Below are positions 7,367 to 60,094 of a stretch of DNA of 64,000 nucleotides, in pieces (the first letter of the stretch is position 1; every line of letters begins with the position of its first letter). Under the pieces are notes generated by a model. That model searched no databases and was not told the DNA's origin. It saw only the letters and a program-made list of their open reading frames with translations. The DNA comes from Ostreococcus lucimarinus (Eukaryota), in NCBI GenBank assembly GCA_000092065.1, contig CP000585.1. One strand, 5' to 3'. Made by a program: the position numbers and the translations under genes.

Positions 7367-9049
7367 ATGCGAAGCGTCGCGCGCGCGTTGAAGTGCGCGC
7401 GCGCGACGCGAGGCGCGACGACCGCGACGATCGCGACGACCGCGCGCGCGCCGGTCGACGGACGACGACGCGGGACGACGAGACGCGCGGGACGCGTCGA
7501 CGCGGGACGACGACGCGGGACGCGCGCGATGGCGGTGAGCGGACGCGCGCACGCGCCGGCGAACGCGGACCCGATGGCGGGCGTCGACGTCGCGGCGAAC
7601 GGGACGGCGTGGCGAGACGCGGCGGTGGACGTGGTGGTGTGGGCGGTGCGAGAGGAGGACGTCGGCGCGGAGACGGGGGCGCTGGAGTGCGACGCGCTGC
7701 GGGCGTTCGACGCGGCGTCGGGGGGGGCGGTGCGAGCGATGATCGAGGAGGGAGAGTTTAAGGGAAAGGTTGGGACGTCCGCGTTCTCGAGGGCGATCGC
7801 GGGGACGGCGAAACACGTCGGCGTGGTCGGCGTGGGGAAGAGGGGGGAGGCGACGACGAGCGCGATGTTGACGCTGGGATCCGCGGCGGCGGCGCAAGCG
7901 CAAAAGAGCAAGTGCAAGACGCTCGGGATTAAGGGTGCGGACGGATTCGAAAACGCGGTCGCGGCTGGGGCGTACTTGGGCGCGACGGAGGATCAGAGGT
8001 TTAAGTCCAAGCCGCAGGCGAAGACGCTCGAATCCGTGTCGTTGTTGGACGTCTCCGCGGATGTCTCCGAGGGTAAGGCGCGCGCGGTGGGCGTGCAGTT
8101 GACCAAAGATCTCGTCGCCGCACCGCCGAACGTGGTGACGCCGACCGCGATGGCGGAAGTCGCCAAGTCCATCGCCGCCGCGCATCCGGATTGCATGAGC
8201 GTGAAAATTTTGGAAAAGGCTGATTGCGAAAAGCTGGGCATGGGATCCTTCTTGGGCGTCTCCGAAGCCTCGGACGAACCGCCGAAGTTTATCCACCTCA
8301 CGTACAAGGGTGCTGGGAGCGACTTGAAGAAAGTGGCTGTCGTCGGTAAGGGGCTGACGTTTGACTCCGGCGGCTACAACTTGAAGGCGGGCGCGGGGTC
8401 GATGATTGAGATGATGAAGTTTGACATGGGCGGTTCCGGAGCCACGCTCGGCGCCGCGAAAATCATCGCGCAGACGAAGCCAGCGGGCGTCGAATGTCAC
8501 TTCATCATCGCGTCGTGCGAAAACATGATCGGTTCTCGCGGCTTGCGCCCTGGCGACATCTTAACCGCGTCCAACGGCAAGACCATCGAGGTGAACAACA
8601 CCGACGCTGAAGGTCGTCTGACGCTCGCCGACGCCTTGGTGTACGCCGACAAGACGTGCGGTGCGACCGCCATCGTTGACTGCGCCACTCTCACCGGCGC
8701 CATCATCGTCGCGCTCGGCAACGACATCGCCGGTCTCTTTTCCCCGAAGGACGCCGCCGCCAAGCGCGTCGAAGACGCCGCCAAGGCGGCGGGAGAAGAT
8801 CTCTGGCGTATGCCCATGCCCGATTCCATGTGGTCTATCATGAAATCTGAAATCGCCGACATGAAGAACACCGGCTCTCGCGGCGGCGGTTCCATCACCG
8901 CCGCGCTCTTCTTGAAGCAATTCGTCGACGAGAGCGTCGAGTGGAGCCACGTGGATTTGGCCGGACCGGTGTGGGACGACAAGAAGGGCGGTGCCACCGG
9001 TTACGGCGCAGCGCTTTTCGCCGCGTGGGTGTCGTCCTTTAAGAAGTAA
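7367..9049 (+). CDS. LAP: Leucyl aminopeptidase, M17 family
   Basis: The [18 protein letters not shown]17 signature, plus [15 protein letters not shown] and CATLTGA. The first in-frame ATG is at 7367; the ORF track start at 7235 is GTG. The N-terminus looks like a transit peptide. Confidence 0.85.
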
Positions 9050-9137
9050 GTGATTCCTTTAATTAAACTGTCCAACCATAAAAATTTAACGCGTCGCCGA
9101 ATAGTCTTTTCTGCATCAGAGCGCGACGTTCGCCGTC

Positions 9138-10571
9138 ATGCGTCGCGCGACGTCGACCGCGAGCGCGCGGCTGCTGGTTCTGACGTTCTTCGCGATCGCG
9201 TCGAGCGTCGCCGTCGCCGCCGCGGCGTCGTACGAGACGCGCTCGACGCGCGCGCCGCGACGCGCGTCCAGCTCGTCCCAGTCCGCCGCGCCGCGTTTCC
9301 GCGCCTACACGTGGGGAATCGGCGGCGAGCGCGTCGGGCGACCGTCCAACCCCTCGAGCTTGCCTCCCGCGCGCGTTGAATTGGACGAGAGCGCGGGAGA
9401 CGTCGTCGCGATCGCGGCGAGCGGACACACCGCCGTGGTCGTCGAGCGCGGGTGGTTGTACACCGCGGGGCGAAACGCGTCGAGCGGTGGTGGCGGTCGG
9501 GGATCGCCCCCGATCGAAGATAGCGGACAGCTCGGTCGCGGTGGTAGTTCGGGGGCGATGGAGCGCGTGATCGGGGCGCTGAGCGATGAGGTGGTCACGA
9601 GCGTGGCGTGCGGACGATATCACACCGTGGTGTCGACGGAGAGCGGCGCGGTGTATTCGTTCGGGTTGAACGACGCGGGGCAGCTCGGGACGGCTGGAGT
9701 GATGGGTAAATTACCGATAAATGGGGTGACGTGTGATAGCGGTGGGAACTGCGATGGGCTCGAGCGAGCGAGCAAGGTTGAGGCGAAGGAGGGCTCGTCG
9801 TGCTTCGGCGGCTCGTCGTGTAGAATCGGGACGCCGCGTCGCGTGCGGTTTTCGAGCCACACGGTGGAGGTTAGGAGCGTTGCCGCAGGCAGGTACTCGA
9901 GCGCGGCGATAGCGAGCGATGGGACTGTGTACGTGTGGGGATTGAATTCTTGCGGCGATAGCGAAATAGGCCGCGACGAGTTACTCGCCGACGCGAGCGT
10001 CGCGGCGGTTCCGCGAGTAGTCAACGGCATCACCGACGTGACGCAGGTAGATATCGGGTACACGAATATGATTTTTCTGACGAGCTCGGGACGAGTGGTG
10101 ACGTGCGACACCGGATTTACCGGGTATGCGCAAGTGCAAGCGAACGCGGATGTGAGCTTGCGGCAGCACATCACGTTTGCGGACGCGCCATCGACGCAGC
10201 GTGCCTTCGACGTCGCCGCTGGACGCTGTCACTACGTCGTTGCCACGGAAGGTGGCGGCCTGTACACGTGGGGCTGCGACGGTGCCTGGCTAGGCCGCGA
10301 CGGCGATCCACTCAAACCAGCTCAAGTCGGCGGCGACTTGGCGTCTCGCGCCGCCGTCTCAGTCGCCGCGGGCGAATACTTCACCCTCGTCGCCACCGTC
10401 GACGGCGAAGTGTATGGTATGGGTGCCGCCGGTAACGGTCAACTGGGCGTCCAAGCGTCGAACTCCGGGCACAACTCCCCCATCCGCGTGAACGTCGGCG
10501 ACGCCGTGGGCACCCTCGCCGTCGCCGCGGGATACCAACACTCGGTCGCCATCGTTCGGTCCTCCGACTAG
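9138..10571 (+). CDS. RCC1-repeat (beta-propeller) protein with an N-terminal signal-peptide-like segment
   Basis: There are at least six RCC1-type blades (YTWGIGGER..., GQLGRGGSSG, YSFGLNDAGQLGT, VYVWGLNSCGDSEIGRDE, LYTWGCDGAWLGRDGD, VYGMGAAGNGQLGVQ). The N-terminus is MRRATSTASARLLVLTFFAIASSVAVAAAAS. Confidence 0.8.
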   Translation: MRRATSTASARLLVLTFFAIASSVAVAAAASYETRSTRAPRRASSSSQSAAPRFRAYTWGIGGERVGRPSNPSSLPPARVELDESAGDVVAIAASGHTAVVVERGWLYTAGRNASSGGGGRGSPPIEDSGQLGRGGSSGAMERVIGALSDEVVTSVACGRYHTVVSTESGAVYSFGLNDAGQLGTAGVMGKLPINGVTCDSGGNCDGLERASKVEAKEGSSCFGGSSCRIGTPRRVRFSSHTVEVRSVAAGRYSSAAIASDGTVYVWGLNSCGDSEIGRDELLADASVAAVPRVVNGITDVTQVDIGYTNMIFLTSSGRVVTCDTGFTGYAQVQANADVSLRQHITFADAPSTQRAFDVAAGRCHYVVATEGGGLYTWGCDGAWLGRDGDPLKPAQVGGDLASRAAVSVAAGEYFTLVATVDGEVYGMGAAGNGQLGVQASNSGHNSPIRVNVGDAVGTLAVAAGYQHSVAIVRSSD

Positions 10572-10785
10572 CGGCGCTGTACATCACACTCCATTCATGA
10601 TTTCTTTACGTTTCCTCGCGTTTTACGCGTTTTCGCGCCCTTCGTCGCCCTTCGTCGTCGCCGTCGTTTCGGCGAACCACGACCGTTAATTAATTCCCGA
10701 GATACGCGCGCGCCATTCCGCGCCGCCCCGCGCGTGCGCGCCGCCTTCCCGCGCCCACGGGCGAAAACTGACGCACGCGGACGCG

Positions 10786-11100
10786 ATGAAGTCTCCGCCG
10801 AAGCTCCCGACGCTGCAGCGCGCGTCGACGAGCGCTAAAGTCCCGACTCTGGTCGTCTCGAATTCAAACGCCAAGCCGTTCGCGTATTACCTCTCCGAGG
10901 CGCAGACGATGCTGAAAACCCACGGCAAAGTGCGCCTGTCGGGCGTCGGGAACGCGACGCAGCACGCGCTGGTCGTGAGCGAGGTGCTGAGCGCGCGAGG
11001 GATCGGAAGGGTGACCGCGGTGCGCACGGGGACGGTGGCCAAGGAGGAACTCGCGGACGAGCACGCGGCCAAGATCGAAGTCACGATCAACGGCGCGTGA
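10786..11100 (+). CDS. Small Alba-like (Rpp25/Pop7-type) nucleic-acid-binding protein, 104 aa
   Basis: VVSNSNAKPFAYYLSEAQTMLKTHGKVRLSGVGNATQHALVVSEVLSARGIGRV follows the Alba-fold pattern. The assignment rests on motif resemblance only. Confidence 0.45.
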   Translation: MKSPPKLPTLQRASTSAKVPTLVVSNSNAKPFAYYLSEAQTMLKTHGKVRLSGVGNATQHALVVSEVLSARGIGRVTAVRTGTVAKEELADEHAAKIEVTINGA

Positions 11101-11172
11101 TCGCTCGCGCGGCACGCTGTACGCTAGCTAACTATTATGATGGTACAATACGATAAGATGTGGTGTATTCCG

Positions 11173-11739
11173 TCACGTCGACGCGCGCGGCGGAAACTCG
11201 CGAAGCGCGCGCCGCGGCGTCGGCGCCTTTGGATTCCCTCTGACGTAAAATTCCTGAAACATCTCGATCGCCTCGCGCTCGAACAACCCACCGCGAGCGT
11301 CGTACGGCTTCCCCACGCCTCCCGCCCCCCCGCACGCGCCGCATCCGCGCGCGTGCGCGTCGAGCACGGTGCCCGCGCCGCCGAATTTGTCGTTCGCGCA
11401 CCCGTACACCACCTCGCGCACGCCCAGCGCGCTCATCGCGCCCGCGCACATCACGCACGGCTCGCACGTCACGTACAGCGTGACGTCCTCGAATCGACAC
11501 GCCGCGCGATCGCCGCCGTGCGCGTCGAGGAGCGCGTCGACGGCCTCGAACTCCGCGTGTCGCGTTCCGTTGCGCGTTCGATTCGTCGCGTTGCGCCCGA
11601 CGGCGACGATCTCGCCGTCGCGCGCGAGCGCGCACCCGCACGGGACCTCCCACTCGTCCAGCGCGAGCCGCGCCTGCGCCAGGGCGACGCGCATGCGCGC
11701 GCGCTCGGCGTCGGTGAATTCGCGCGACGCGCGTCGCAT
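11173..11739 (-). CDS. TAD2: tRNA-specific adenosine deaminase (TadA/ADAT2-type CDA-fold zinc deaminase)
   Basis: The HAE...PCVMC zinc-binding signature (RHAEFEAVDALL...LYVTCEPCVMCAGAM). ATG at 11739. The longer 358-aa ORF upstream is a His/Arg-rich compositional extension. Confidence 0.75.
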   Translation of the reverse strand: MRRASREFTDAERARMRVALAQARLALDEWEVPCGCALARDGEIVAVGRNATNRTRNGTRHAEFEAVDALLDAHGGDRAACRFEDVTLYVTCEPCVMCAGAMSALGVREVVYGCANDKFGGAGTVLDAHARGCGACGGAGGVGKPYDARGGLFEREAIEMFQEFYVRGNPKAPTPRRALREFPPRAST

Positions 11740-46771: not shown

Positions 46772-49700
46772 ATGACGCTGCGCTTTCGTCGTCCGCGCGT
46801 CGGCAAAGTTTGGGAACACGGCGCCGCGGTGGACGTCGTCGTCGAGCGCGCGGATGATTTCGATCGCGATCGCGCGCGCGAGTGTGAGATCTCGCTCGTC
46901 GGTCAAGGGGCGTGGATGCGAAGCTCGAAACACGCGACGCTTGGGAAGATTTCATTCCGCGAAGGCGAAGGCGAAGGCGAACGCGAGCTCGACGAAGGGA
47001 AACTGACGTGGCGCGTGCCGGAAGACGTGCCGAGCGGAGAGTACGAACTGAAGGCGAGCGTGCCGAACTCACGACCGGCGATCGAGACGACGACGCGGAT
47101 CGTGATCTCTGAAAGGATGAAGGCGCGACGGACGAGCGCGGGGACGTGCGAGGCGACGTGGGACGCGCGCGCGATTCCCGGAGATTACACGGCGGAAGAT
47201 GGATGGAAACTGGCGATTGATATCACGCCCGTGATTGAAGAAGGAGAGGATGTCAACGCAGTGGTGTCTCACGCGTTTATACTCGCCGCAGAGAGTGGAT
47301 TGAAGACGCACACGAAGGATGGGACGCGCATCTTGTGCGACATCTCAGAGGCTGAGCGAGAGAGTCGGCGCAAAACGTTGCGATTGCTTCCCAACCGCGC
47401 TTGTGATATCGCGCTTTGCGCTTTTGGGGACGAGTCAGATGCCATGGCGGATTACGTCACGTTGAGAGTTAGGGTGGACATGTCGCAGACGATGATGGAA
47501 GTGTGCGCGAGTGGGCATCCGTCGCAGACGATTTCGTCGCGGAGCGTGCATTCTGCAGACGGCTACTACTCCAGAAGTCCACCGATTAAATCGATAGAAA
47601 AGAAACCGGACGGCGAAGAGCTAAAAGATGTTACGAACATTGACGATAGGGAAGCGGTGCTGAAGGATGACTTGAGCTTGGGTCGCTGGGCCGCAGAGGA
47701 GAGCACCGACGGGTGGCGACAGGAGCCTGGTTTGAATGTTCTCGTCGTGCGCGCAGACGACTTCCAGCCAATCTATGAGTGTACATGGGACACCAGCGGT
47801 GGTGCGCGTCGCGCGAAAGAAATTGAGACGCAGTTACAGTCATTCATGAAGTCATTCTTTGACGGCGGCGCCGTCGACGTGGCTCGAAAAAGCGTGCCAG
47901 AACATTTTCTTTGCATCACCACCTGTGGTCAATGGAGCGGAGGGACGGCTAAAATTAGCGAAAAAATTTCAAAAGCGTTGCAACTCGTTCTCGTTGGAAT
48001 CCTAGGCTCGGACAAGGGCGACGATGGCGTGAGCGCGCGCATTCACAAAGCATTGGCAGTTCCAGACAAGCCTCTTGCCATCGCCGCTGTGTCTTATGGG
48101 AGCGCTCGAGACGAAGTGCACACGTGGGTTGACGTGAGCGAACCGAAAGGCAAAGCGATCATCAAAACGTCGTTGAGCAATTCCAACGGTGCGTGGTACC
48201 CTACGTTGATCCAGCGCGGCGAAGGCGAGCACGCGTCTGATTGGTACATTCCTTGGAGAAATTACGCGCGCGAAGGGTGGAGCGTATTAAGTGAAGACGC
48301 GCGAGTTCAACGATACTCACAACTGATAGGCGATATACGACACATGGTTTTCGATGCCGAAAGTGGTTCTCGAGTGAGCGTGTACAATTTGGTACGTGCA
48401 CTCGTCAAATACGCCTCACGGCGTAGTGGCGATAAATCGTTGGTACCGACGGTGGACATGCTTCTCGTTGAAATTATTCTTTCGCGTGGAGCGCTGGCGG
48501 TTGTCGAGTGCGTCAATGCTGGTGCGGTTGAGTATGTCGTTGATAGAGTGCTTTCGTGCGTGCGCGAAGATGCCACCCACGACAAGTTGGAGGTGCTAGA
48601 TAAGGCGTACATCAAATCGCTTCTCAAATTGCTCACCGTGGACGATTTTGCGATGTATGCGGAAGGCATTCGCAGAGGCGCCGCGGATGCTGCATTGCGC
48701 GTGATTCATGCGTTTTGGAACGGGAGTTCCACATTCTTTGATAGTAACTCGCGCGAGATGCTCTCACAGCTAGCGGAGCACATGGCGCTCACAGATTTAG
48801 CCACTGTGCGCATGGTTGCCAAAGACGAACACTCAATGACTGCTTTTACCGCCATTCGGTCGAGTTTAACTTGTGCGGCGCCTTACTCAGGAGAGATCTC
48901 TGGCAAAGTCCACATTCTAGACATCTTGCCAGCGAACGAACAAGACGGACTGATTGAGTTGCCGACATCGCCGAGGACAAATGATGACGTCTCACCAGTA
49001 ATGACGCCGGCGCAGAAAATATTGCAGGCGTACGACGAAATTTGGGAAGGCGGCGAGTCACCGGATAAAGATGGTGATAAGGAGTGGACAATGGTAGAAA
49101 CCGGCGCCGATCAAGTGAATCAACCTGACAACGCAGCGTCAAGCTCGCTTCAAATAGAGGAACCCGTCATGCACACCCCAGAACCGATCAAACGAACAAT
49201 GTCCGGACAGATCGAGTCAGCGCCTGAGCAACCTCTCGACGGTATAGTCATTCTTTGTGCAAAAGGCGGCGACTGGAACACGCATATTTCGATGATTCGA
49301 CAAGCTCCCAGACTCATGTGGCGCGCTCGTGAACGCGGCGCTCGCGCTGTCATTTTTACGTGGCCTCGACGCGGGTTGGCGTGTGTACCGGTTCAGCCGT
49401 TGTTATCGAGTCCAAACTTCGACAACGTGACGAACATTCCAAGCTTCGTCATGTGCGCGGAGTCACTGACACGGTTGCTTCAGTTTTCCGATGACTGCAC
49501 TCTAAAAATTGAGATCCCTCCGAATGGTCTGGTTGGCACCGCTGAAGCGCTCGCAAAGCGAATCGGGAACCAGCTCATGGCGGCGTGCGCAGATCGACCA
49601 CCGCCCATGACGCCGTCTGTTACACCGCCAATCGCCGGTCGTTTTCGCGGCCGATTTAAGCACACTGATGCGCAGACTCTTCTTCCACGTGAAGACGTCT

Positions 49701-51256
49701 CTTCACCGCGAACGCCTTCGGCGTCCACAGGAGAAGGCTTTGCTGCGGCTTTGATTCGCAGAGTCACGTTTACGCAGTCCGGTGAAAGCAAAGAAGAACC
49801 GAAGGATGAAGAAACCTACGTGCGCGATGCCGAGAAGGATGAACGTGACTTCGAATCGCTTCGCCATCTCAGTGAAAAAGTGGCGGCGCCCCCGATGGAC
49901 GAAAACTCGCATCTCGACGCTTGGCGGAGCGCAAATTTAGAAGGCGGCGTGTCGCGATGGACGCGTGCCATGCGACTCGTGAACGCGCTGGGGGATCACG
50001 GAGTGCCATTCATGAAAGGCGCGTATCCGGATAACACCGGTGCAGATGATGATGGACCGATTCGTATTCTGAGTTTGGATGGAGGCGGCATGCGTGGCAT
50101 CGGCACGCTCGTCATGTTGGAACGCATCCTAGAGGCTACGAATAGTTGGTGTGTCGGAGACTGCTTCGACCTCGTTGTAGGCACTTCCACGGGTGGTATC
50201 ATCGCTGTTGGTGCTGGTCTGCTTAGGATGACGACCGACGAGTTGCACGAGCTGTACGTCAAGATGGGCGATGAGATATTCCCTAGAAAAGCCGACTCAT
50301 CCTTGACTCACTGGTACAACCAAACGACAAAGTTCTACCACCGCGGTCGAGAAGAGGCAAGAAGTTTTGAGACTATGCTGCGCAAAGCGTTGCGAGAGGA
50401 AGCCGAAAAACCACTGTACAGTATCACGTCCCATCCACGTTGGTATTCCTCGACTTCTCCGCCGCCGCACGTCTGTCTAGTTTCACACCTCGTGAGTCGG
50501 TCACCTGCCACAACGTTTCTGATGCGTTCGTACAAACACGACGCGAGAGGCAAAAGCCATCTCGGCCACTTGCCAGGCGAACATCGTGCGAGCTTGTTGA
50601 ACTCAATTCGCGCGACGACTGCCGCGCCTTGGTTCTTGGAAGAGCTCAGGATGAAGAAAGAAATCGGGGGCGCTGGAGGTTTTGCACGAGAGCGTAAGTC
50701 TGAAGCCGATAACGCGAACTCTCGCGCGTCGCCCAACGACGTGGAAAAGAAGCAGACTACGGAAGACCATCGCCACGATCATCAAAGAGCACCGACAAAC
50801 GTCAATGCGGAGATCCGATTGATCGACGGCGCCATCGCGAGCAACAATCCCACCGCCGTCGCGGTCTTTGAAGCGCGTCGCTTGTTCTCAAAATCCCGAC
50901 CGCTCTGCGTCGTTTCTCTCGGCACCGGTGCCGCCGTTCCAAACTCTCGCGACGCGCGTCTATCCGGTTTCCCCGGTTGGCTCGACAATACCATCCACGC
51001 GTCGTGCGACGTCGCCCAAGTCGACGCCACCATCAGACACTTACTCGGCGCCGACGACGCGTATTACCGTTTCCAGCCAACCGCCGACGTCTTCAGCTGC
51101 GAGCTCAACGACGTCTCCCCCGAGACGTCGTCCAAGCTCAAGCACGCCGCCGCCGCGTACATGGACACCGTCGACGCCCAGGTTCGCGAGCTCGCCGAGA
51201 TTCTTCGCATCGCCGCCGCGCCCTCGCCATCGAACCGCCCAGACGGCGCGCGATGA
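46772..51256 (+). CDS. Large patatin-like phospholipase (iPLA2/PNPLA8-like catalytic domain at the C-terminus) with a ~1000-aa N-terminal region of unknown function
   Basis: The patatin motifs are ILSLDGGGMRGIG (oxyanion GGxR), VVGTSTGGII (GxSxG nucleophile) and IDGAIASNNPT (catalytic Asp). I recognised nothing in the N-terminal 3 kb. ATG at 46772. Confidence 0.8.
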   Translation: MTLRFRRPRVGKVWEHGAAVDVVVERADDFDRDRARECEISLVGQGAWMRSSKHATLGKISFREGEGEGERELDEGKLTWRVPEDVPSGEYELKASVPNSRPAIETTTRIVISERMKARRTSAGTCEATWDARAIPGDYTAEDGWKLAIDITPVIEEGEDVNAVVSHAFILAAESGLKTHTKDGTRILCDISEAERESRRKTLRLLPNRACDIALCAFGDESDAMADYVTLRVRVDMSQTMMEVCASGHPSQTISSRSVHSADGYYSRSPPIKSIEKKPDGEELKDVTNIDDREAVLKDDLSLGRWAAEESTDGWRQEPGLNVLVVRADDFQPIYECTWDTSGGARRAKEIETQLQSFMKSFFDGGAVDVARKSVPEHFLCITTCGQWSGGTAKISEKISKALQLVLVGILGSDKGDDGVSARIHKALAVPDKPLAIAAVSYGSARDEVHTWVDVSEPKGKAIIKTSLSNSNGAWYPTLIQRGEGEHASDWYIPWRNYAREGWSVLSEDARVQRYSQLIGDIRHMVFDAESGSRVSVYNLVRALVKYASRRSGDKSLVPTVDMLLVEIILSRGALAVVECVNAGAVEYVVDRVLSCVREDATHDKLEVLDKAYIKSLLKLLTVDDFAMYAEGIRRGAADAALRVIHAFWNGSSTFFDSNSREMLSQLAEHMALTDLATVRMVAKDEHSMTAFTAIRSSLTCAAPYSGEISGKVHILDILPANEQDGLIELPTSPRTNDDVSPVMTPAQKILQAYDEIWEGGESPDKDGDKEWTMVETGADQVNQPDNAASSSLQIEEPVMHTPEPIKRTMSGQIESAPEQPLDGIVILCAKGGDWNTHISMIRQAPRLMWRARERGARAVIFTWPRRGLACVPVQPLLSSPNFDNVTNIPSFVMCAESLTRLLQFSDDCTLKIEIPPNGLVGTAEALAKRIGNQLMAACADRPPPMTPSVTPPIAGRFRGRFKHTDAQTLLPREDVSSPRTPSASTGEGFAAALIRRVTFTQSGESKEEPKDEETYVRDAEKDERDFESLRHLSEKVAAPPMDENSHLDAWRSANLEGGVSRWTRAMRLVNALGDHGVPFMKGAYPDNTGADDDGPIRILSLDGGGMRGIGTLVMLERILEATNSWCVGDCFDLVVGTSTGGIIAVGAGLLRMTTDELHELYVKMGDEIFPRKADSSLTHWYNQTTKFYHRGREEARSFETMLRKALREEAEKPLYSITSHPRWYSSTSPPPHVCLVSHLVSRSPATTFLMRSYKHDARGKSHLGHLPGEHRASLLNSIRATTAAPWFLEELRMKKEIGGAGGFARERKSEADNANSRASPNDVEKKQTTEDHRHDHQRAPTNVNAEIRLIDGAIASNNPTAVAVFEARRLFSKSRPLCVVSLGTGAAVPNSRDARLSGFPGWLDNTIHASCDVAQVDATIRHLLGADDAYYRFQPTADVFSCELNDVSPETSSKLKHAAAAYMDTVDAQVRELAEILRIAAAPSPSNRPDGAR

Positions 51257-51347: not shown

Positions 51348-54300
51348 ATGCTGGCGCACATCGCGAAAACCGTGAGCGACACGGTGCAGAAAACCACGCG
51401 CGCGCGCGCGTGCGAGCGTTTAAAGCCGTCCGGGACGCTCGCGCTCGACAAACAGACGGGCGCGGTTCGCGCGCTCGGAGTCGTCGACGAACGCCTGCTC
51501 GGCGCGTGCGATGACGGCGGACTGCGTTGTTGGAGCACCACGTCGGGGGCGCTGACGTCGCAAGCGCGCGCGCACGCGGGCGCGGTGACGGCGATGGTGA
51601 CGTCGAAGGATGGGACGCGCGTGACGAGCGCCAGCGAGCGCGGCGACGCGGCGACGCGAGACGCGCGCACGGGCGTCGTGACGATGGAACTCGAAAATGG
51701 CGTCGATGCCGTTGCGCTGTGGTGCCTCGGGATGTTGACGAGCGGAGAGTTGGTGGGAGGGGACGACGTGGGGAGGATTTTCGTGTGGGAGGACGGCGAA
51801 CGGTTTCCAATTTGGCGATTCGCGTCGACGGCCGAGTCGGCGCCGATGCCTGGGAAGGCAAAACGTCTGAAGCCTTCGGAAGGGCCGCCTGATCGCGTGC
51901 ACGCGGTGTCGGGGTGGGTGCATCGTTCGACGGGGAAGGAGTTCGTGGTGAGCGGGAACGGGCATGGGATTCTGAGTCTGTGGACGGTTCGCGTGGGCAA
52001 GCCGGTAGCGGAGTTCGGTCCTGACGACGGCGGGCATCGGGGCGCGATTCACACCGTGTGCGATAACGAAGGCGTGATCGTTACCGGTGGGGCGGATGGG
52101 CGCGTGTTGGCGTGGTACGTCAACGAAGAAGGTCAGCTTCTCGGTCCACCGGAGGAACTCAGCGTCCACGGACATCACACGGGCGCCGTGTTATGCGCGG
52201 CGAGCATCCGTCCCGGCTTTGTGTGCACGGGAGGCGTCGATGGACGCGCGTTGGTGTGGGATATCAAGGCGCGAGCAGTATTATTTGAGTGTCCGGGCAC
52301 GAAATCGGCGGGAGCTGTGCGGTCGCTCGCCTTCGATGGAAATGGTGTGCTTTACGTCGGATGCGCTCTGTCACAAATTTCACGATGGGAATTGCCGAGC
52401 GACGAGTTTCTCAGCTCTCGCAGTCGCGACGAGCTCCCCTTACTAACGCGTAACATGAGCAGCGAAAACATTAGTCAAGCTGTGCCACACTCGGTGAGCG
52501 CGCCGACCCCGAAGCGAGACGTCGCCGCGGAAGAATTGAGTCTCGCAGATACAATCAAGACGCTGGACGCCGTTCGCAAAGAGTGTGAGCGTTTACGAGA
52601 GTCAGACAGGAGTCGCGCATCGAAGGTTATAGGCCTTGAAAAGGAGCTCGTGACCGTGAACAAGTCGCTTGCTAACGTCGGAGAGGAAAATCAGCGACTC
52701 AGGGCCAAGGTAGATTCGATGGCGCCAACGCCGAGCGTTGCGCCGAAGGACGACGAAATCGAGGCGCTGCGCAAGAAGTGCGACAAGATGGAGAACATCG
52801 CTCGTAAGCAAAAGACGAAAATCGAAGAGCTGAAGGGCGAGTTACAATCGGCGGAAAGCTCGCGTGCCGAGGACCAAAAGCGCGCGACAGACGAGCTCGA
52901 GGCGTCGAACGAGAAGCTGGCAGGCCTGCATAAAGAGCTTGAAGAAGCGCTCGCGGGCGCTCAGGGTGAAGGTTTGAGCGTGGAGGACATGATGGCTGCA
53001 GCCGAGAAAGCTTTGCTGAGTCCAGAGCCTGCGACGAGTGAAGCATCCCAGGAAATGATGCGCGAGCTGCATAGCGTGCGGGAAGAATTGCAACTGTCTA
53101 AACAAGACGTCGCGAGTGCGGAGCAGACCATCGCAAAATTGCGCACGCAGCACGATGTGCTCACCGCACGCGCAAAGGAAATAGAGGAACAGAGCCAATC
53201 CCTTTCACAATCACAAGACGCAAAAGTGGCGACGTTACGTGAGGATGTGACATCCCTTCGCGAAAAACTCGGGTCAAAGGATGCGGAATTAGACGATTTG
53301 CGCAAGCAACTCGGCGAAGCGAAGAAGCGAGCCGAAGCGCTCGATAGGGAACGTCTCGAACTCACGGCGCAATGCGAAGAAACATCAAGGCACCATAAAG
53401 ACGTTGACGCATCAAACGCTGAGGTTACAAGAATGCGCGAAAAATTTGAAAACGCAGTCACGAAAGGCAAAGGATTCCAAGAAGAAGGCAAAAAGCTCCG
53501 CGCAGAGCTTGAGGCGAAACACGTGGAGCTGGCCCAAGCTCAGGATGTTTCGACTTCGATGCGGGCTCGCGTGACAGAGCTTATGGCGAGTTTAGACGCC
53601 GCAAACGAGAAAGTCACCGATGGGCTTCGGCTTCTTGCGCAGAAGGAGGAAGAAGTAGCCAGGAGTGCGTCGACATTGAAAACCGTCGAGAATGCGGCGA
53701 AAGAACTCAACACAGCGAAAGCGGAGACAGCCAAACTGCAGCAAAAGTTTGATAACGCGGTCAAGAAAGGAAAAGGATATCAAAGCGAGTGCGGTGCGCT
53801 CACCGCTCGGCTGAAAGAACGCGAGAGCGCGTTGTCGGCATCAAATGCGTCAAAGGCTCAGGTTGAATCACAGCTTGCCGCTGCTGTCGCAGAAATTGAG
53901 CTCGTGCGTTCCGAGCTCGAGACAAGACTTGACGACGTGCAGCGCAATTCCACAAAAGATACCGAAGAACTTAATTCATTGCGCGAGCGCTTGCACGACG
54001 CCGAGGCGCGCCTTCGTGCTGCAGAAGATACGAAGGGCTCCGCCATTGCGGAGCGCGAAGGTAAAATCTCTGCGCTGGAGAAGCAAATTAACGAGTCAGA
54101 TGCGAACTTTGAGCGGATGCGCACCGAACTAGCAGCGCGTGATGAGGAACGCGATCGACTTATATCGCAGATCAAATCGAGCGAAGCGGCCCAGGAGGAG
54201 CTTCAAAAGCTTCGCTCGAGCATCGAGTCATACGAGACGGAAATGGTGTCTCTCAAGACTGCGATAGACACGGCGAAGACAAAATTTGCCAATGCGGTTA

Positions 54301-55322
54301 AGAAAGGGAAAGGATTTCAAGAAGACGCTAATAAACTTCGTGATGAATTAGCCGCGAAAGATGCCGAGCTTGCACATGCCCGCGGCGAGTCAGCTTCGGT
54401 AGACACTCACCGCGCTGAGCTCGCGGCGAGTTTAGATGCTGCGAACGCGAAGATCTCAGATGGCCTTCGCCTTCTTGCGCAGAAGGAAAACGAAATCTCG
54501 GGTCTGGCGGCGGAGTTGAAAGCAGTCCAAAGTCGATGTACTACGCTCGAAGAGGATATCAGCAAGAGAGACGCCAAGAAGAACGATGAAATCGAGCAAG
54601 ATGTGCGGGGACAGCGGTGGCTCGAGGAGCAAGCACGCGCTGCGGCGGAGTCTCAAGTGAGAGATTTGGCGGAGGAGAACGAACGACTGAAGCAAGAAGT
54701 TGCGGCAGCAGCGGCTGCAGCGCAGGACGCGTGGCAAGTTGCGGCGAGCCACGGCGTGCGTCCTGGAGATTCTCGGCCTGTGAGCGAAGTGGGGTCCCCC
54801 GTTCGCGAAGGCTATGGTCATCGAGCACGCTCGCTCTATCAACAACCAACGTATCGAGGTGCCATGTCGATGGTGCACGAAAGGAACGACATGGTTGTAC
54901 CCAGAGAAGACTACGACCGCGTCAAGGAGCGATGTGTAAAATTGAAGAGAGATTTAGAGGCGGCGAAGCAGGCGGCAAAGGAAGCTGTGCAGCAAGTCAT
55001 CAACCGTTTGGAGCTGGAAGTGATGGCCAAAATTCATGCTGAATCTTCCGCGAAAGCCGCAGAAGCGGAATGTGATCGCGCGTGGGCGCACGCAAAAGAC
55101 GCGCTAGCTACGGCGCGCGAGATGCAAAAGCAACCGGCTCGTCAGCTAGCTGTCGCCGAAGCGTCAAGCGTCAAGCCACAGCCACCCCCGGGTACGCGCG
55201 CGGCGGTTGCGATGGAGCGTCAAAACGGTAACGGCGTGGTCGTCATTCGACAAGAACACTTAGCATCGATCGTCGCCGCGCTCCTCTCATTCATCATCGG
55301 AACGTGGTTTGCGAAATTCTAG
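51348..55322 (+). CDS. WD40-repeat plus ~900-aa coiled-coil protein with a C-terminal tail-anchor TM helix; it contains a triplicated internal module
   Basis: The WD-like N-terminus runs from ~51350 to 52450 (GLRCWSTTSG, GRIFVWEDGE, GILSLWTVRVGKP, GRVLAWYVNEEGQ, GRALVWDIKARAV). A continuous coiled coil follows. The C-terminal TM is LASIVAALLSFIIGTWFAKF. The ATG at 51348 lies 92 bp after the patatin stop codon. Confidence 0.7.
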   Translation: MLAHIAKTVSDTVQKTTRARACERLKPSGTLALDKQTGAVRALGVVDERLLGACDDGGLRCWSTTSGALTSQARAHAGAVTAMVTSKDGTRVTSASERGDAATRDARTGVVTMELENGVDAVALWCLGMLTSGELVGGDDVGRIFVWEDGERFPIWRFASTAESAPMPGKAKRLKPSEGPPDRVHAVSGWVHRSTGKEFVVSGNGHGILSLWTVRVGKPVAEFGPDDGGHRGAIHTVCDNEGVIVTGGADGRVLAWYVNEEGQLLGPPEELSVHGHHTGAVLCAASIRPGFVCTGGVDGRALVWDIKARAVLFECPGTKSAGAVRSLAFDGNGVLYVGCALSQISRWELPSDEFLSSRSRDELPLLTRNMSSENISQAVPHSVSAPTPKRDVAAEELSLADTIKTLDAVRKECERLRESDRSRASKVIGLEKELVTVNKSLANVGEENQRLRAKVDSMAPTPSVAPKDDEIEALRKKCDKMENIARKQKTKIEELKGELQSAESSRAEDQKRATDELEASNEKLAGLHKELEEALAGAQGEGLSVEDMMAAAEKALLSPEPATSEASQEMMRELHSVREELQLSKQDVASAEQTIAKLRTQHDVLTARAKEIEEQSQSLSQSQDAKVATLREDVTSLREKLGSKDAELDDLRKQLGEAKKRAEALDRERLELTAQCEETSRHHKDVDASNAEVTRMREKFENAVTKGKGFQEEGKKLRAELEAKHVELAQAQDVSTSMRARVTELMASLDAANEKVTDGLRLLAQKEEEVARSASTLKTVENAAKELNTAKAETAKLQQKFDNAVKKGKGYQSECGALTARLKERESALSASNASKAQVESQLAAAVAEIELVRSELETRLDDVQRNSTKDTEELNSLRERLHDAEARLRAAEDTKGSAIAEREGKISALEKQINESDANFERMRTELAARDEERDRLISQIKSSEAAQEELQKLRSSIESYETEMVSLKTAIDTAKTKFANAVKKGKGFQEDANKLRDELAAKDAELAHARGESASVDTHRAELAASLDAANAKISDGLRLLAQKENEISGLAAELKAVQSRCTTLEEDISKRDAKKNDEIEQDVRGQRWLEEQARAAAESQVRDLAEENERLKQEVAAAAAAAQDAWQVAASHGVRPGDSRPVSEVGSPVREGYGHRARSLYQQPTYRGAMSMVHERNDMVVPREDYDRVKERCVKLKRDLEAAKQAAKEAVQQVINRLELEVMAKIHAESSAKAAEAECDRAWAHAKDALATAREMQKQPARQLAVAEASSVKPQPPPGTRAAVAMERQNGNGVVVIRQEHLASIVAALLSFIIGTWFAKF

Positions 55323-55338: not shown

Positions 55339-56142
55339 CTACTTGCTGAAAATGTCTTTGATACCATCGAGGAGCGATACACCGCGCTTCGGTCCGTTGA
55401 ACGCATCGAAAATCTTTCCAACTGCACTTTGCGGCTCGAAACGCGCCATTATTCTCTCGAATCTTGGATCCTGCCGCAGAATAGAGATGTCCTCGTCCTT
55501 GCGTATAGCCGGGTACTCGTCGTATCCGCGTTCGAGTGCCGCATTCAACGACGCCAGCCCTTCGCTCACATTACCGAGTTTTGCGTGACAGCACGCCGTG
55601 TTGTATCGAATCGCAATTTCTTCTCCAGCACTCAGCTCTCTTGGTTTGAACCCGGCGCTCGGCCCCGCTGGGGCGACTACGGATTTCCGATACCGTACCG
55701 GTCCGCTTCCCGCGAGCGTCGCCGCGCGCGCAAACGTGGCCAACGCCTTCTCGTAGTCCCCAGCCGCGTACTCTCTCTGTCCATCCGTGATGCACTCCCC
55801 CGCCGTATTCGCCATTCTTTCCTTCTCTTGCTCTTCTCGCAGCGATGCGAACGCGGCGTCGTCAATCATCTGCGGCACCGTCGCCCCAGCCGCGCCCACG
55901 AGCGCCGCCAAATCCGCGTCGCTCAGCTCCTGCAGGTTCGCCACGCCCACGTCCTCCGTGGAGTCGAAATCCATCCCAGCGTCATCATCAGCGTTCGCGT
56001 TCCACGTCAGCGGGTCGTTGGCGTCGAAAGCGCGTCCACGGGCGACGACGGCCGGTCGACGGCGAGGATGACGACGGTTCGCGAGCGAAGACTTCAACGG
56101 TGCCGCGGGCGCGCGCGCGTCGATCACGGACGCGGCGTGCAT
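55339..56142 (-). CDS. TPR-like repeat protein (start uncertain)
   Basis: TPR-like helical pairs (GDYEKALATFARAATLAG, IRYNTACCHAKLGNVSEGLASLNAALERGYDEY). The ORF-track start at 56250 is TTG; the first ATG is at 56142. Confidence 0.5.
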   Translation of the reverse strand: MHAASVIDARAPAAPLKSSLANRRHPRRRPAVVARGRAFDANDPLTWNANADDDAGMDFDSTEDVGVANLQELSDADLAALVGAAGATVPQMIDDAAFASLREEQEKERMANTAGECITDGQREYAAGDYEKALATFARAATLAGSGPVRYRKSVVAPAGPSAGFKPRELSAGEEIAIRYNTACCHAKLGNVSEGLASLNAALERGYDEYPAIRKDEDISILRQDPRFERIMARFEPQSAVGKIFDAFNGPKRGVSLLDGIKDIFSK

Positions 56143-56250
56143 ATCCGGAACGTCGAGGTGTGAGTTGGGATGATCGAGCGAGCGTGGCGCGCGGCGTCGG
56201 GCGGTCGTGGGGAAGTGGCGTCGTCCAGAGGGGACTGGCGCTATCCACAA

Positions 56251-56453: not shown

Positions 56454-58823
56454 TTATTCGGACCAGCCGCCCCAGCTGGAGCCGCCGGATCGAGCGGGCG
56501 CACGATCGCGACCACCGCCACCGCCGCCGTAGCCATCACCGCCGTAATCGCGTCTTGGGGGACGATCGTTGTAATCGCGTCTCGGCGGACGATCGCCGAA
56601 GTCGCGCCGGGGGCGGTCGCCTCCTCCTCCGTCTCGACGTTCGTAGCCGCCCTCGCTTCGGCCGCGGTAGCCTCCCCCGCCATCACGATCGCGGCCACGG
56701 AAACCGCCGTCACGGTCACCTCCATAGCCCCGTCCGCCGCCACGGCCACGGCGCTCAAAGCCACCGCCGCCGCCCCGACCTCGGCCGCCGCCTCGGCCAT
56801 AGCCTCGGCCGCCGCCTCGGCCGCGTCGACCGCCGAACCCAGAGCGTTCTCGCGTTTGTTCAGCCATGAGATCAGGAAGTATCGTACAGACGCTCAGATC
56901 GAAACCATTCAAGTCCGTGACGGTTTCAAGATCCTTCATGTACGCGGCATCGATGTCGAAGCACAATCCGTTCTTGCTCTCCATGAAACGAATCTTGCCG
57001 CATCCATCCGCGAGCTTGCGGTCGATTTCAGTCAAAGCGCGAAGCAAGTCGCCCGCTCGGATCGCAGGCTCACTTCCTTCGCGGTCCAGAACCATATACG
57101 TGCACGAATTGGGCGCACCGGTGAGGAGCGATCGCGGAGGCGGCGCCTCCGTCTGCCCGCTGATGGCGGCCAGAGCGGCGGCCAGAAGCTTGGTGACTTC
57201 CTCGTCGGTGTCCGCCGGCAGCAGGCGAGCAGCGGCGGGAGAGAAATAAGGTAACAGTTCATCGTCCACTTTCGTGAGGACGTTAGAAGCGGTAACAGCG
57301 CAGGCGTCCATGACCTCCGTCGACGACGGAATGCCGATGGTGCGGAATTCGCATCCAGTTTCCTTTTTGATGCGACGAATCATGTAGGATTCGCGATCGG
57401 TGTGCATCGCGATCGCGGCACCGAGTTGTCCAGCGCGGCCGGTACGACCGCATCGATGCACGAACGATTCGACGTCGTTCGGGAGCTCGTAGTGAATGAC
57501 CAAGTCGACGTCGGAAATGTCCAAGCCGCGAGCGGCGACGTCGGTGGCAATGAGCACGCTGAAGCGGTTGTCACGGAATCGCTGGAGGGTGCGCTCGCGC
57601 TGCGCTTGAGCGATGTCGCCGTGGAGAACTTCAGATGCCACGCGACGACCGAGCGCGGCGGTGAGTTCATCGGCCGCGCGCTTGGTTTGCGTGAAGCAAA
57701 TAGCCTTCTTATCCTTGGCGTACACGGTGACGAGGTCCATGACGATGGAGGTTCGGTTCGCGTGCGACACGGCGCACGACATCAAATCAATCGTGTCCGC
57801 GACTTTTTGCTTGGAGTCACCGACCAAATCAACCACGACGTGCCCGGGTTTCAAGAACTTCTTCGTGATTTGCTTCACCCAGCTCGGCATCGTCGCCGAG
57901 AACAAAAACGTTTGGCGGCTCTCCGGGCAGTCTTGCAGAATCGCCTCCACGTCTTCCTCGAACCCGACGTTCAACATCTGATCCGCCTCGTCGAGCACCA
58001 CAAATTCGATTTCGCCCAAATCCAAGCTTCGTCTGTTCATCAAATCCTGCACCCGACCCGGGGTACCGACGACGATGTCGACCCCTCGACGAAGTTTACC
58101 CTCTTGCTGACCGATGGGCGTCCCCCCGTACACGCACACCGTCTCCAACGACGGCGCGGTGATGCAAATTTCGTTCTCAACCTGCTTCGCCAGCTCTCGC
58201 GTCGGCGCCAACACGATGCATTTCGGATTTCTCGACCGTCCGCTCGTTCCATCCGTCAACAATCGCTCAATCACCGGCAGCGCGAACGCTAGCGTCTTCC
58301 CCGTCCCCGTTCTCGCCCTTCCCACGACGTCCTCTCCCGACAGCGCCGGTTTCAGCACCGCCTGCTGTATCGGAAACAGCGTGTCCACGCCTCGTTTTCT
58401 CAGCGCCGCCACCGTGATCGCCGACATTCCGAAATTCCCCACGTCCATCGGGTCCGCGTCCGCCTTCACCTTTATCACGACCTCGTCCTCGTCCGCGACG
58501 TACCCCTCCTCCAGCGCGCTCTCGCGCTCGTCCGGCGCGTACCGCCCCGCGAACGCGTCGTCGTCGTCCGCATCGTCCTCGTCGTCGTCGCCGAACGCGC
58601 CGTCGATCTTCGCGAGCAATCGCGCGTCGTCGCCGTCGTCGTCGGCGGCGAATCCCGCCGCCGCCGCCGCCGCCGGTCGCGCCGTCGTCGACGCGCGATG
58701 GCGACGCGCGACGGCGGCGGGACGGCGCGCGAGCGCGTCGGCGCGCCGCGGGATCGCGCGCGCGTTCGCGGGGCGCGCGGCGGCGCGCGCGAGCGTCGCG
58801 AAGGCGACGGCAAAGGACGCCAT
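56454..58823 (-). CDS. DEAD-box ATP-dependent RNA helicase (plant RH3/RH7-like) with a C-terminal Gly/Arg-rich (RGG/GYGR) tail
   Basis: Q-motif region FPIQQAV, motif I GRARTGTGKTLAF, PTRELA, DEAD (VLDEADQML), SAT, and HRCGRTGRAG. The C-terminus reads GFGGRRGRGGGRGYGRGGGRGRGGGGGFERRGRGGGRGYGGDRDGGFRGRDRDGG. The ATG at 58823 gives a transit-peptide-like MASFAVAFATLARAAARP. The upstream 138 codons are Arg/Pro-rich and doubtful. Confidence 0.85.
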   Translation of the reverse strand: MASFAVAFATLARAAARPANARAIPRRADALARRPAAVARRHRASTTARPAAAAAAGFAADDDGDDARLLAKIDGAFGDDDEDDADDDDAFAGRYAPDERESALEEGYVADEDEVVIKVKADADPMDVGNFGMSAITVAALRKRGVDTLFPIQQAVLKPALSGEDVVGRARTGTGKTLAFALPVIERLLTDGTSGRSRNPKCIVLAPTRELAKQVENEICITAPSLETVCVYGGTPIGQQEGKLRRGVDIVVGTPGRVQDLMNRRSLDLGEIEFVVLDEADQMLNVGFEEDVEAILQDCPESRQTFLFSATMPSWVKQITKKFLKPGHVVVDLVGDSKQKVADTIDLMSCAVSHANRTSIVMDLVTVYAKDKKAICFTQTKRAADELTAALGRRVASEVLHGDIAQAQRERTLQRFRDNRFSVLIATDVAARGLDISDVDLVIHYELPNDVESFVHRCGRTGRAGQLGAAIAMHTDRESYMIRRIKKETGCEFRTIGIPSSTEVMDACAVTASNVLTKVDDELLPYFSPAAARLLPADTDEEVTKLLAAALAAISGQTEAPPPRSLLTGAPNSCTYMVLDREGSEPAIRAGDLLRALTEIDRKLADGCGKIRFMESKNGLCFDIDAAYMKDLETVTDLNGFDLSVCTILPDLMAEQTRERSGFGGRRGRGGGRGYGRGGGRGRGGGGGFERRGRGGGRGYGGDRDGGFRGRDRDGGGGYRGRSEGGYERRDGGGGDRPRRDFGDRPPRRDYNDRPPRRDYGGDGYGGGGGGRDRAPARSGGSSWGGWSE

Positions 58824-58903
58824 TCGCGCGAATGCGTCGGCGTGTGCGGCGAGGGGCTCTTGACATTTGACGCCGAGACGCGAGACGCGAAGAAGGAATA
58901 CAG

Positions 58904-60094
58904 TTACACGCCGAGACGGGCGCGAAGCTCGCGAAGGGCGGCGTCGACGTCGACGTCCATGGCGACGGAGACGCGCGGACGGTCGGACCAGGCGTTGCGG
59001 AAGAGCCAGGCGCGGCGAGCGTCGAGGAAGACGGCGCCGCGGGCGCAGTCGCGGGCGAGCGCGACGCGGACGGCGCCGCGGCGGAAAGTGAAGACGGCAT
59101 CGCGGACGTGAGGGAGGGCTAAGAGCAGAGCGGTGGGATCGTGGACGTAGATGCCGTCGAAGTCGGCGACGCGGAGGTGATACGCCTTGTAGAATTGGGT
59201 GGCGTCGTGAAGAAAGGCGCGGAGGAGGTTGGAGCATCGACGCGGCGGCGAGACGGCGTCGGCGTCGCGGAGAACGGTTTCCAAACGCTCGATCTCGGCG
59301 CCAGAAAGACGCACTCGAGTCGTCACGTCGAGACCTACGACGAAGGTGCGCTCGAACGCGCCGAAAACCTCATCCGCGGCCTCGGGGTCGCCTAAAATAT
59401 TCGCCTCCGCCGCCGGATTTACGTTGCCGTTTACCTCAAACGCGCCTCCGAGCACGACGAGCTCACCCATGGTTTCCGAGCACTCGGGATGCCGCCGAAA
59501 CGTCAGCGCTATGTTTGTCAACGGCGCGAGCGCCAGCACCGTCACCTCGCCCGGGTACTTGGCGCACATCTCCGCTATAAAATCCGCCGCCTCTCGCCCC
59601 GCTCGGTGTTCCACCGCGCTCTCCTCGGGCCGCGTCTCGTACGCGCCGCGCACGCCCCCGAACCCGTCTTCGCCGTGCACGAAATCCGCGACCAACACCG
59701 CGGAATCGTCCGCCGTGGACGCGCCCGCGCCCGATCGGTCGTCCTCGTCGAGCGCCGCCAGCGGCGCGCGCGCGCCGTCGACCACCGGCAACCGCGCGCC
59801 GGCTTCGCGCCTCCACGACCCGGCGAGCGCGCACATCTCGACGAGCGTGCGCGCGTTTCGCGTCGCGTCGTCGCGCCGAACGTTGCCGAAGACGGTGGTG
59901 AGGCCGAGGACTTCGACCTCGGTCGACATCGTTTCGAGCGCGAGCGCGATGGCGAAGGCGTCGTCGACGCCGGGATCGGTGTCGATGATGAGCTTGCGCG
60001 GCGGCGGCGACGCCGGCGTCGACGCGGGAGACGCCGTCCGCGTCGAGGAGGCGTCGACGGGCGCGTTAGTGTGTGTCGTCGCGGGAGACGACAT
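58904..60094 (-). CDS. URH: Inosine-uridine preferring nucleoside hydrolase family protein
   Basis: The N-terminal signature KLIIDTDPGVDDAFAIALAL (the DxDxxxDD Ca2+-binding motif), plus length and collinearity with IU-NH. ATG at 60094. Confidence 0.85.
   Translation of the reverse strand: MSSPATTHTNAPVDASSTRTASPASTPASPPPRKLIIDTDPGVDDAFAIALALETMSTEVEVLGLTTVFGNVRRDDATRNARTLVEMCALAGSWRREAGARLPVVDGARAPLAALDEDDRSGAGASTADDSAVLVADFVHGEDGFGGVRGAYETRPEESAVEHRAGREAADFIAEMCAKYPGEVTVLALAPLTNIALTFRRHPECSETMGELVVLGGAFEVNGNVNPAAEANILGDPEAADEVFGAFERTFVVGLDVTTRVRLSGAEIERLETVLRDADAVSPPRRCSNLLRAFLHDATQFYKAYHLRVADFDGIYVHDPTALLLALPHVRDAVFTFRRGAVRVALARDCARGAVFLDARRAWLFRNAWSDRPRVSVAMDVDVDAALRELRARLGV

Follow-up and report, generated by a model that had tools for sequence, protein, structure and literature searches.

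A 64,000-nucleotide stretch of the genome of Ostreococcus lucimarinus CCE9901, a tiny marine green alga (contig CP000585.1 of assembly GCA_000092065.1), hereafter the window, carries a complete and intronless open reading frame (ORF) at 51348-55322 on its plus strand, with 1324 codons followed by a TAG stop at 55320-55322. The encoded protein joins a WD40 head to a long coiled-coil rod and a C-terminal membrane anchor, and the rod carries three copies of a lysine-rich motif. The first ATG of the uninterrupted frame lies at 51348, and we place the start there because the N-terminal sequence MLxxIKKTV, which is common to all orthologs in the alignment, and further residues before Met83 are conserved. 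The public GenBank/RefSeq entry, a "predicted protein" of 1242 residues (XP_001417741.1), begins at Met83 of the ORF and is without the first 82 residues. The corresponding codons 1-82 (51348-51593) are in frame and hold the ortholog-invariant residues D56, G57, R60, W62, G67 and S71, and the invariant residues upstream of Met83 include WD40 residues. As judged from this alignment, the public model appears to be N-terminally truncated. A TTG-initiated extension back to 50868 was rejected, as it runs into the patatin-like gene upstream and the starts of the orthologs coincide with the methionine at 51348. The identical protein is recorded from 84 contigs, in a cluster that contains XP_001417741.1.

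The head (51411..52397; residues ~22-350; like all features of the gene described here, on the plus strand) is a canonical seven-blade WD40 beta-propeller. The structural model and the fold matches agree on seven four-stranded blades and a closed propeller, with one disordered insertion at residues 162-180. The head is 11-21% identical to other canonical seven-blade propellers, including WDR61, RACK1, G-beta and COP1; no WD40 subfamily stands out, and none of these top matches is joined to a tail-anchored rod. The rod that follows (residues ~386-1132, a length of ~750 residues) is rich in alanine (15%), glutamate (14%), leucine (10%) and lysine (9%), with few prolines or glycines, and its mean identity to six orthologs is 33%, with sharp conserved islands. 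Thus, the architecture proposed in a first-pass annotation of the window, namely a long coiled coil with a WD40 head before it and one anchor at its C-terminal end, is borne out by the ORF, the WD40 model, the predicted helix and the transmembrane domain (TMD). Its treatment of the source as a green alga is likewise correct.

The three repeated peptides that the first-pass annotation had reported within the rod were recovered exactly, at residues 699, 800 and 979 (nucleotides 53442, 53745 and 54282), and all three sites conform to the motif KFxNAVxKGKG[FY]Q. The core of copy 1, TRMREKFENAVTKGKGFQEEGKKLRAELE (53427..53513; residues 694-722), has an identity of 0.54 among the orthologs and lies between flanks of 0.12-0.22. 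The core of copy 2 is AKLQQKFDNAVKKGKGYQSECGALTARLK (53730..53816; residues 795-823), in which F801, A804, V805, G808, K809, L818 and L822 are invariant across 13 sequences. Copy 3, DTAKTKFANAVKKGKGFQEDANKLRDELA (residues 974-1002), is preceded by a conserved island at residues 934-975, and the two together (54147..54353) show identities of 0.59-0.68.

The same annotation had described the repeat as a triplicated module of ~90 residues. Three cores are indeed present, but the long module is confined to copies 1 and 3. Smith-Waterman alignment of copy 1 with copy 3 gave a score of 233 (z 25 relative to shuffled sequences) over ~92 residues, whereas copy 2 scored ~110 against either of the others (z 8.7), with the core carrying the score. 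When the core was removed, copy 2 was no closer to copy 1 than shuffled sequences were (z -0.3) and weakly similar to copy 3 (z 2.9), whereas copies 1 and 3 still matched each other with a z of 21. Thus, the rod contains two long modules and three short cores. Module 1 (53433..53717; residues 696-790), which includes SLDAANEKVTDGLRLLAQKEEEV, is a long paralog of module 3 (54273..54557; residues 976-1070), which includes SLDAANAKISDGLRLLAQKENEI. By the same token, the DAANxKxxDGLRLLAQKE segment that had been said to follow each copy occurs only twice, after copies 1 and 3, and no such extension follows copy 2.

A rod of such biased composition, which also gives weak matches to generic coiled-coil profiles in Pfam and the PDB, might yield repeats of this kind by chance, as a by-product of low complexity in a coiled coil rich in lysine and glutamate. 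The statistics speak otherwise: the number of occurrences of KFxNAVxKGKG expected from the rod composition is 1e-9, the pairwise scores stand well clear of the shuffles (z 25 and 8.7), and lineages whose rods otherwise share ~33% identity keep the motif columns invariant or almost so. This explanation is effectively excluded, its likelihood being close to nil.

The two long modules have a history that differs from that of the cores. Module 1 and module 3 are 54% identical in amino acids and 62% identical in nucleotides, with 42% identity at third codon positions. Among orthologs, the extension of module 1 is not conserved (identity 0.16), and that of module 3 is moderately conserved (0.38) and recognizable in Bathycoccus as DLADANEKLKDSLERVVRLE. 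When the regions downstream of the first and last copies were compared within each ortholog, z ranged from 0.2 to 4.7 everywhere except in the 87% identical protein P0002; three other orthologs (P0103-P0105) have a separate extension shared between copies 1 and 2 (z ~10). Because the downstream-only test is positive just in O. lucimarinus and P0002, the ~90-residue similarity is lineage-specific, a duplication or homogenization of the copy-3 module. Given the identities above, the event was not recent, and its age is such that synonymous sites are close to saturation. A more recent event is seen elsewhere in the family: in P0003 and P0253, which belong to an Ostreococcus-like clade, a motif-bearing block of ~90 residues (ELARLREKLQSTESAMSAL...KQMKQKFDNAVKKGKGFQEQT, within the region of residues ~690-800) is duplicated in tandem almost perfectly, and 1271-residue relatives of these two proteins have one copy fewer. 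Thus, motif copy number shifts by recent tandem duplication within the family.

Alignment of 27 distinct copies from the orthologs defines a conserved unit of ~27 residues, KxKFxNAVKKGKG[FY]QEEAxxLRxEL. In the profile built from these copies, Ala17 and Leu31 are invariant, and Lys13, Val18, Lys20, Gly21 and Lys22 are each found in at least 90% of the copies. Mean hydropathy per position places hydrophobic or small residues at positions 3, 7, 10, 14, 17, 21, 24, 28, 31, 35, 42 and 45, an unbroken 4-3-4-3 spacing that keeps the motif in register with its flanks. Thus, the motif is an in-register stretch of the coiled coil and not a break in it. Its composition is unusual, in that the buried positions read Phe(a)-Ala(d)-Gly(a)-Phe(d)-Ala(a) and the exposed positions hold conserved lysine, asparagine and glutamine residues, giving a lysine-rich surface. 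An AlphaFold2 (AF2) model of the C-terminal 400 residues, calculated as a monomer and consisting of a long helix and disorder (predicted template modeling score 0.23), places copy 3 within a single continuous helix of 207 residues (926-1132) with a predicted local distance difference test score (pLDDT) of ~77-92; for the copy and the conserved island before it, the score is 87-92. Across the six orthologs, the motif cores form islands of identity (0.54-0.68) in a rod with a mean of 0.33. The lack of conservation against which the first-pass annotation had cautioned was not seen: the core is present in every ortholog found, with two to four copies in Ostreococcus- and Micromonas-like orthologs, one in Bathycoccus and two in a distant metagenomic homolog, L002, described below.

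A word-indexed database search returned full-length orthologs of 1270-1590 residues with 40-87% identity and the same architecture and, beyond these, only unrelated WD40 proteins. The cluster of one ortholog match contains the O. tauri "WD40 repeat" protein XP_022838990.1, and all orthologs found, Bathycoccus included, belong to the Mamiellophyceae. The reach of the search was extended by an exhaustive HMMER search of 1.84 billion representative sequences with a profile of residues 925-1324, which cover motif copy 3 and the C-terminal domain. It returned 50 matches at an expectation value (E) of 0.001 or below, among which the genuine ones are the algal family and two more distant groups. Two proteins with many matched stretches (P0194 with 16 and P0195 with 11) were rejected as unrelated, repetitive coiled coils that do not contain the motif. 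The remaining matches at this threshold are generic or repetitive coiled coils without the motif, and no plant protein is among them. Two other searches were uninformative. A word-indexed search with the motif alignment gave zero matches; because a local hmmsearch with the same profile scores the family at E values of 1e-25 to 1e-61, the index evidently misses lysine-rich words. A 420-residue probe assembled from 14 natural motif segments retrieved just five fragments of the family itself and says nothing about plant proteins.

The first of the distant groups is Bathycoccus prasinos (P0193; E 6e-19), whose gene lies directly downstream of a patatin-like gene, as in O. lucimarinus. It encodes a WD40 head, one copy of the motif (KEKFAKAVSKGKGFQDQ), a recognizable DLADANEKLKDSLERVV segment, the C-terminal domain and the anchor. 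The coding region is split into two ORFs (4236-7739 and 7977-9221 of the analyzed locus L001; GCA_964199685.1, OZ117217.1), and the annotation covers just the last 406 residues (CAL6372376.1). A metagenome fragment (P0236) reads through the ORF junction, which suggests that the split is a frameshift, an assembly error or a strain difference. The second group (P0196 and P0201) derives from L002, a 52-kb, intron-rich contig of 63% GC (Ga0589710_0000193 of Joint Genome Institute metagenome 3300061567). Its WD40 exon is ~30% identical to the O. lucimarinus head, and it also encodes two copies of KAEKMEQVAVKQKAALEKL, the motif twice (VQKAIKKGKGFEAEAKRL and RLQKAIKRGKAAEAKSAEL), the C-terminal domain and, at the end, a TMD. 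Since both the motif and the architecture occur in Bathycoccus and in L002, both are older than the diversification of the Mamiellales. The family appears to be narrowly distributed. The introns of L002 (positions 1-11400) are many, short and copies of one another, falling into repeat families of 70-142 nucleotides with 70-94% identity (677-818, 861-1002, 3686-3827, 6972-7113, 7440-7581 and 10435-10576); they look like introner-like elements.

Within the protein, conservation is highest in the last ~240 residues (identity 0.68), and it is this region that retrieved the Bathycoccus protein and the two L002 proteins in the profile search. The conserved C-terminal domain (54606..55133; residues 1087-1262; identity 0.68) consists of helix, linker and a second helix of 76 residues; the AF2 model shows helices at residues 926-1132 and 1186-1261, with a pLDDT below 50 for the linker between them. 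The linker (54744-54902; residues 1133-1185), GVRPGDSRPVSEVGSP / GVRPGDSRPVSEIGSP.R.GY..RARSLYQQPTYRGAMSM, is predicted to be disordered yet is nearly invariant, and it holds Ser-Pro and RxRS-type sites. It may be a linear motif that is regulated by phosphorylation or bound by a partner. Just before the anchor lies a proline motif, KPQPPPGTRA (55173..55202; residues 1276-1285), in which P, Q, P, P, G and T are invariant and which is kept in Bathycoccus as PRPPPGTKA.

The protein ends in a tail anchor (55260..55319) made up of the TMD LASIVAALLSFIIGTWFA (residues 1305-1322), which is preceded by an invariant QEH, and the two-residue tail KF. The TMD comprises 18 residues with a grand average of hydropathy (GRAVY) of 2.13 and coincides with the highest Kyte-Doolittle window, the sole strongly hydrophobic window of the protein. 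The protein thus has the hallmarks of a tail-anchored protein, with one TMD less than ~30 residues from the C-terminus, no signal peptide and a bulk that is predicted to be cytosolic; the TMD and minimal tail are kept in all orthologs, and membrane insertion is predicted. In the listed orthologs and the distant homolog, the TMD has 17-20 residues and a GRAVY of 2.1-2.6, and the tail has 1-4 residues with a charge of +1 or +2; the Bathycoccus anchor departs from this pattern, its segment being 15 residues long and its tail longer and uncharged. Since hardly any residues follow the TMD, the whole protein is predicted to face the cytosol. A short hydrophobic TMD followed by two residues, one of them basic, fits tail-anchored proteins of the endoplasmic reticulum (ER)/Golgi type.

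The anchor bears on two other locations. The protein could be an adaptor on the outer membrane of the mitochondrion, chloroplast or peroxisome that acts in the division, positioning or inheritance of single organelles. Analogs are known, since Mdv1, Caf4 and Mda1 are adaptors that combine WD40 and coiled-coil domains and PMD1 is a tail-anchored, coiled-coil division factor, and basic residues flank the TMD on both sides (R1301 before it and K1323 after it). However, tails of 1-4 residues with a charge of +1 or +2 and a TMD GRAVY of 2.1-2.6 are closer to ER-type anchors than to typical anchors of outer membranes, homology to division factors was not seen in Pfam or in the exhaustive search, and the domain order is the reverse of that of Mdv1. 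We consider an organelle adaptor unlikely. A nuclear-envelope or cytoskeleton linker, in which the WD40 head of a WIT-like or KASH-like protein would recruit motors or cytoskeletal elements, would also place a long coiled coil on a C-terminal anchor, as in the plant WIT proteins. KASH proteins carry a luminal peptide of ~10-30 residues after the TMD, with a PPPX-type end, whereas the luminal tail is two residues long here and 1-4 residues in most orthologs; no KASH peptide is present, and homology to such linker families was not detected in Pfam. In favor of this possibility, the tail-anchored Arabidopsis protein MAG3 is a binding partner of WPP proteins, and these also act on nuclear-envelope proteins with a tail anchor (PMC11880317). 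Taken together, a nuclear-envelope linker seems distinctly improbable.

As the first-pass annotation had it, the motif matches nothing recognized: it is without a match in Pfam or among PDB sequences, and the motif strings were not found in the literature. The suggestion that it may define an uncharacterized family likewise holds up, in that the motif lies outside every described family and its core is kept in all orthologs. Neither the motif nor the C-terminal domain has a family match in Pfam or the PDB. For the last 238 residues, the complete list of Pfam matches at E <= 10 consists of eight families at chance level, with neither Golgin_A5 (PF09787), a profile of the C-terminal coiled coil and TMD of golgin-84, nor CASP_C (PF08172), which lies beside the TMD in CASP, among them; nor does Golgin_A5 appear among the 25 families listed for the whole protein or those listed for each rod fragment. 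Golgins of the GRIP or GRAB type end in a domain that binds Arl1 or Arf1 and have no TMD there, whereas the O. lucimarinus protein ends in a TMD, and the Pfam matches listed include neither domain. The Sec12/PREB arrangement, a cytosolic propeller directly before a C-terminal TMD, is not found either. PDB sequence searches with two profiles (A2, built from the motif alignment, and A3) gave coiled-coil noise only (E >= 0.01), and literature searches by motif string, accession number or architecture turned up nothing relevant.

One match called for closer scrutiny. ATG16 (PF08614) reached 33.7 bits, exactly its cutoff, on an excised rod fragment only, and we rejected it as coiled-coil noise. The match would have suggested an autophagy scaffold resembling ATG16, which likewise combines a coiled coil with WD40 repeats. 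However, it falls in generic coiled coil beside equally good matches to TACC, GAS and CCDC113, and the families listed for the whole protein (the best 25 of 26, all at E <= 0.089) do not include ATG16. Moreover, the domain order is reversed, with WD40 first in O. lucimarinus but last in ATG16, where it follows an N-terminal ATG5-binding region and the coiled coil, and ATG16 is soluble rather than membrane-anchored. An ATG16-like scaffold is effectively excluded, with a very slight residual probability.

We tentatively propose, at somewhat less than an even chance, that the protein is a tether or scaffold resembling the golgins, anchored in a membrane and carrying repeated docking sites. The short hydrophobic TMD would anchor it to the membrane of the ER, Golgi or nuclear envelope. 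The conserved domain of ~240 residues would adjoin the membrane, and the rod of ~750 residues would extend from this domain as an elongated dimer or trimer. The rise of a coiled coil is 0.15 nm per residue, so a fully extended rod would be ~100 nm long. The WD40 propeller at its distal end would serve as a platform for capture or assembly. Conserved, exposed residues recur along the rod; because of this, each copy of the motif may be an equivalent docking site for the same partner, with a small GTPase, an acidic protein surface or an acidic membrane as candidates. There is a plant precedent for such an arrangement in MAG3/TNO1, a coiled-coil protein held by a tail anchor and acting at the interface of ER and Golgi (PMC11880317).

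Several observations weigh against this proposal. Sequence homology to golgin or tether families was not detected in Pfam, where the TMF profiles stay below threshold: TMF_TATA_bd (PF12325) scores 14.5 bits against a cutoff of 29.1 and TMF_DNA_bd (PF12329) 19.0 bits against a cutoff of 35, which is coiled-coil noise. Golgins are not known to carry a WD40 head. The AF2 model, being that of a monomer, does not fix the oligomeric state or the packing of the Phe-Ala-Gly-Phe core, and the features of the TMD may also be compatible with organelle outer membranes. Finally, a literature search for the O. lucimarinus protein and its O. tauri ortholog found no mention of either. A more far-reaching version, which we regard as improbable, would take KxKFxNAVKKGKGFQEE to mark a family so far unrecognized, made up of tail-anchored tethers with a WD40 head from green algae of the picoplankton and from one or more other lineages, in which the copies would dock the same partner (for example a Rab/Arf-type GTPase or an acidic membrane) and which might be a deep-branching relative of MAG3/TNO1.

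Two further islands of conservation lie in the N-terminal half of the rod. The first, LRKKCDKMENIARKQKTKIEELKGEL (LRKKCDKMENIARKQKTKIEELK) (52767..52844; residues 474-499), has a mean identity of 0.70 to the six orthologs, with K477, K480, M481, E482, I484, A485, K487, Q488 and K489 invariant, and is kept in L002 as KAEKMEQVAVKQKAALEKL. The second, LSVEDMMAAAEKALLSPEP (LSVEDMMAAAEKALLSP)...MRELHSVREE (52974..53087; residues 543-580), has a mean identity of 0.72 and carries prolines at positions 559 and 561; it is probably a break in the coiled coil. Upstream of the gene, on the plus strand (46772-51256), lies a gene for a protein of 1494 residues with a patatin-like phospholipase region (GGGMRG...GTSTGG) near its C-terminus. 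The same order, with the patatin-like gene followed by the WD40 coiled-coil gene, occurs in Bathycoccus prasinos, where positions 1-4010 of L001 match PF01734. Downstream, on the minus strand, lie a gene for a 303-residue protein to which no type was assigned (55339-56250) and one for a DEAD-box helicase of 927 residues with a long C-terminal tail rich in glycine and arginine (56454-59237). These ORFs abut, and such very short spacers are typical of the compact O. lucimarinus genome.

The smallest known free-living eukaryotes are those of the genera Ostreococcus, Micromonas and Bathycoccus, whose cells make do with a single Golgi stack, mitochondrion and chloroplast. To keep a conserved, membrane-anchored rod of 1300 residues is costly for such streamlined cells, so it probably organizes something essential in their minimal endomembrane or organelle layout, and its function would inform on minimal cell organization. 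No described family combines a WD40 head with such a rod and a tail anchor, and none contains the repeated lysine-rich Phe-Ala-Gly-Phe segment; even so, the protein looks like a variant, restricted to its lineage, of known tethers or scaffolds and not like a new type of system. Gene targeting is possible in these algae, and the repeated motif and the architecture provide a concrete experimental handle.

Compared with known systems, the protein shares several features with the tail-anchored golgins (golgin-84/GOLGA5, CASP and giantin): a cytosolic coiled-coil rod that is many hundreds of residues long, a single hydrophobic TMD at the very C-terminus that leaves a minimal luminal tail, strongest conservation next to the membrane and conserved islands along the rod. 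Unlike these golgins, which capture vesicles by short N-terminal motifs, the O. lucimarinus protein has a folded WD40 propeller. The likeness to golgins or tethers noted in the first-pass annotation thus stands at the level of architecture but does not extend to sequence, since no golgin family profile is significant. From these comparisons we judge the protein to be golgin-like in design and not a member of any golgin family tested. Adaptors that combine WD40 and coiled-coil domains (Mdv1/Caf4, ATG16L1, coronin and striatin) share a propeller joined to an oligomerizing coiled coil. However, they are soluble and their coiled coil is short, whereas the O. lucimarinus rod has ~750 residues and is membrane-anchored, and Mdv1 and ATG16 differ from it in the order of domains (WD40 first here).

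A narrower form of the tether proposal would make the protein the prasinophyte counterpart of MAG3/TNO1 (AT1G24460), which has a paralog in AT4G31570. Both Arabidopsis proteins presumably carry repeated KLxxAVxKGKxL segments, to which the KFxNAVKKGKG motif would on this reading be homologous; the resemblance is a lead only. In Arabidopsis, ER exit sites are held at the Golgi by MAG3/TNO1, which is tail-anchored; it is described as having coiled coils and a TMD, with no mention of a WD40 domain, and its homologs are reported in land plants only (PMC11880317). The WD40 head would thus be extra in the O. lucimarinus protein, and the search with residues 925-1324 gave no plant match at E <= 0.001, a result that speaks against recognizable homology over the C-terminal 400 residues. 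On balance, we find a direct counterpart of MAG3/TNO1 doubtful. If the link is true, the origin of the "plant-specific" system that connects ER exit sites with the Golgi would shift to the base of the green lineage, which would bear on the evolution of the plant ER-Golgi interface; otherwise, the protein is one more lineage-restricted coiled-coil protein. In its features, MAG3/TNO1 is in our assessment the closest characterized analog found: both proteins belong to the green lineage, both have a very long, multi-segment coiled coil that is tail-anchored by a C-terminal TMD, and for neither have homologs been reported in fungi or animals (PMC11880317).

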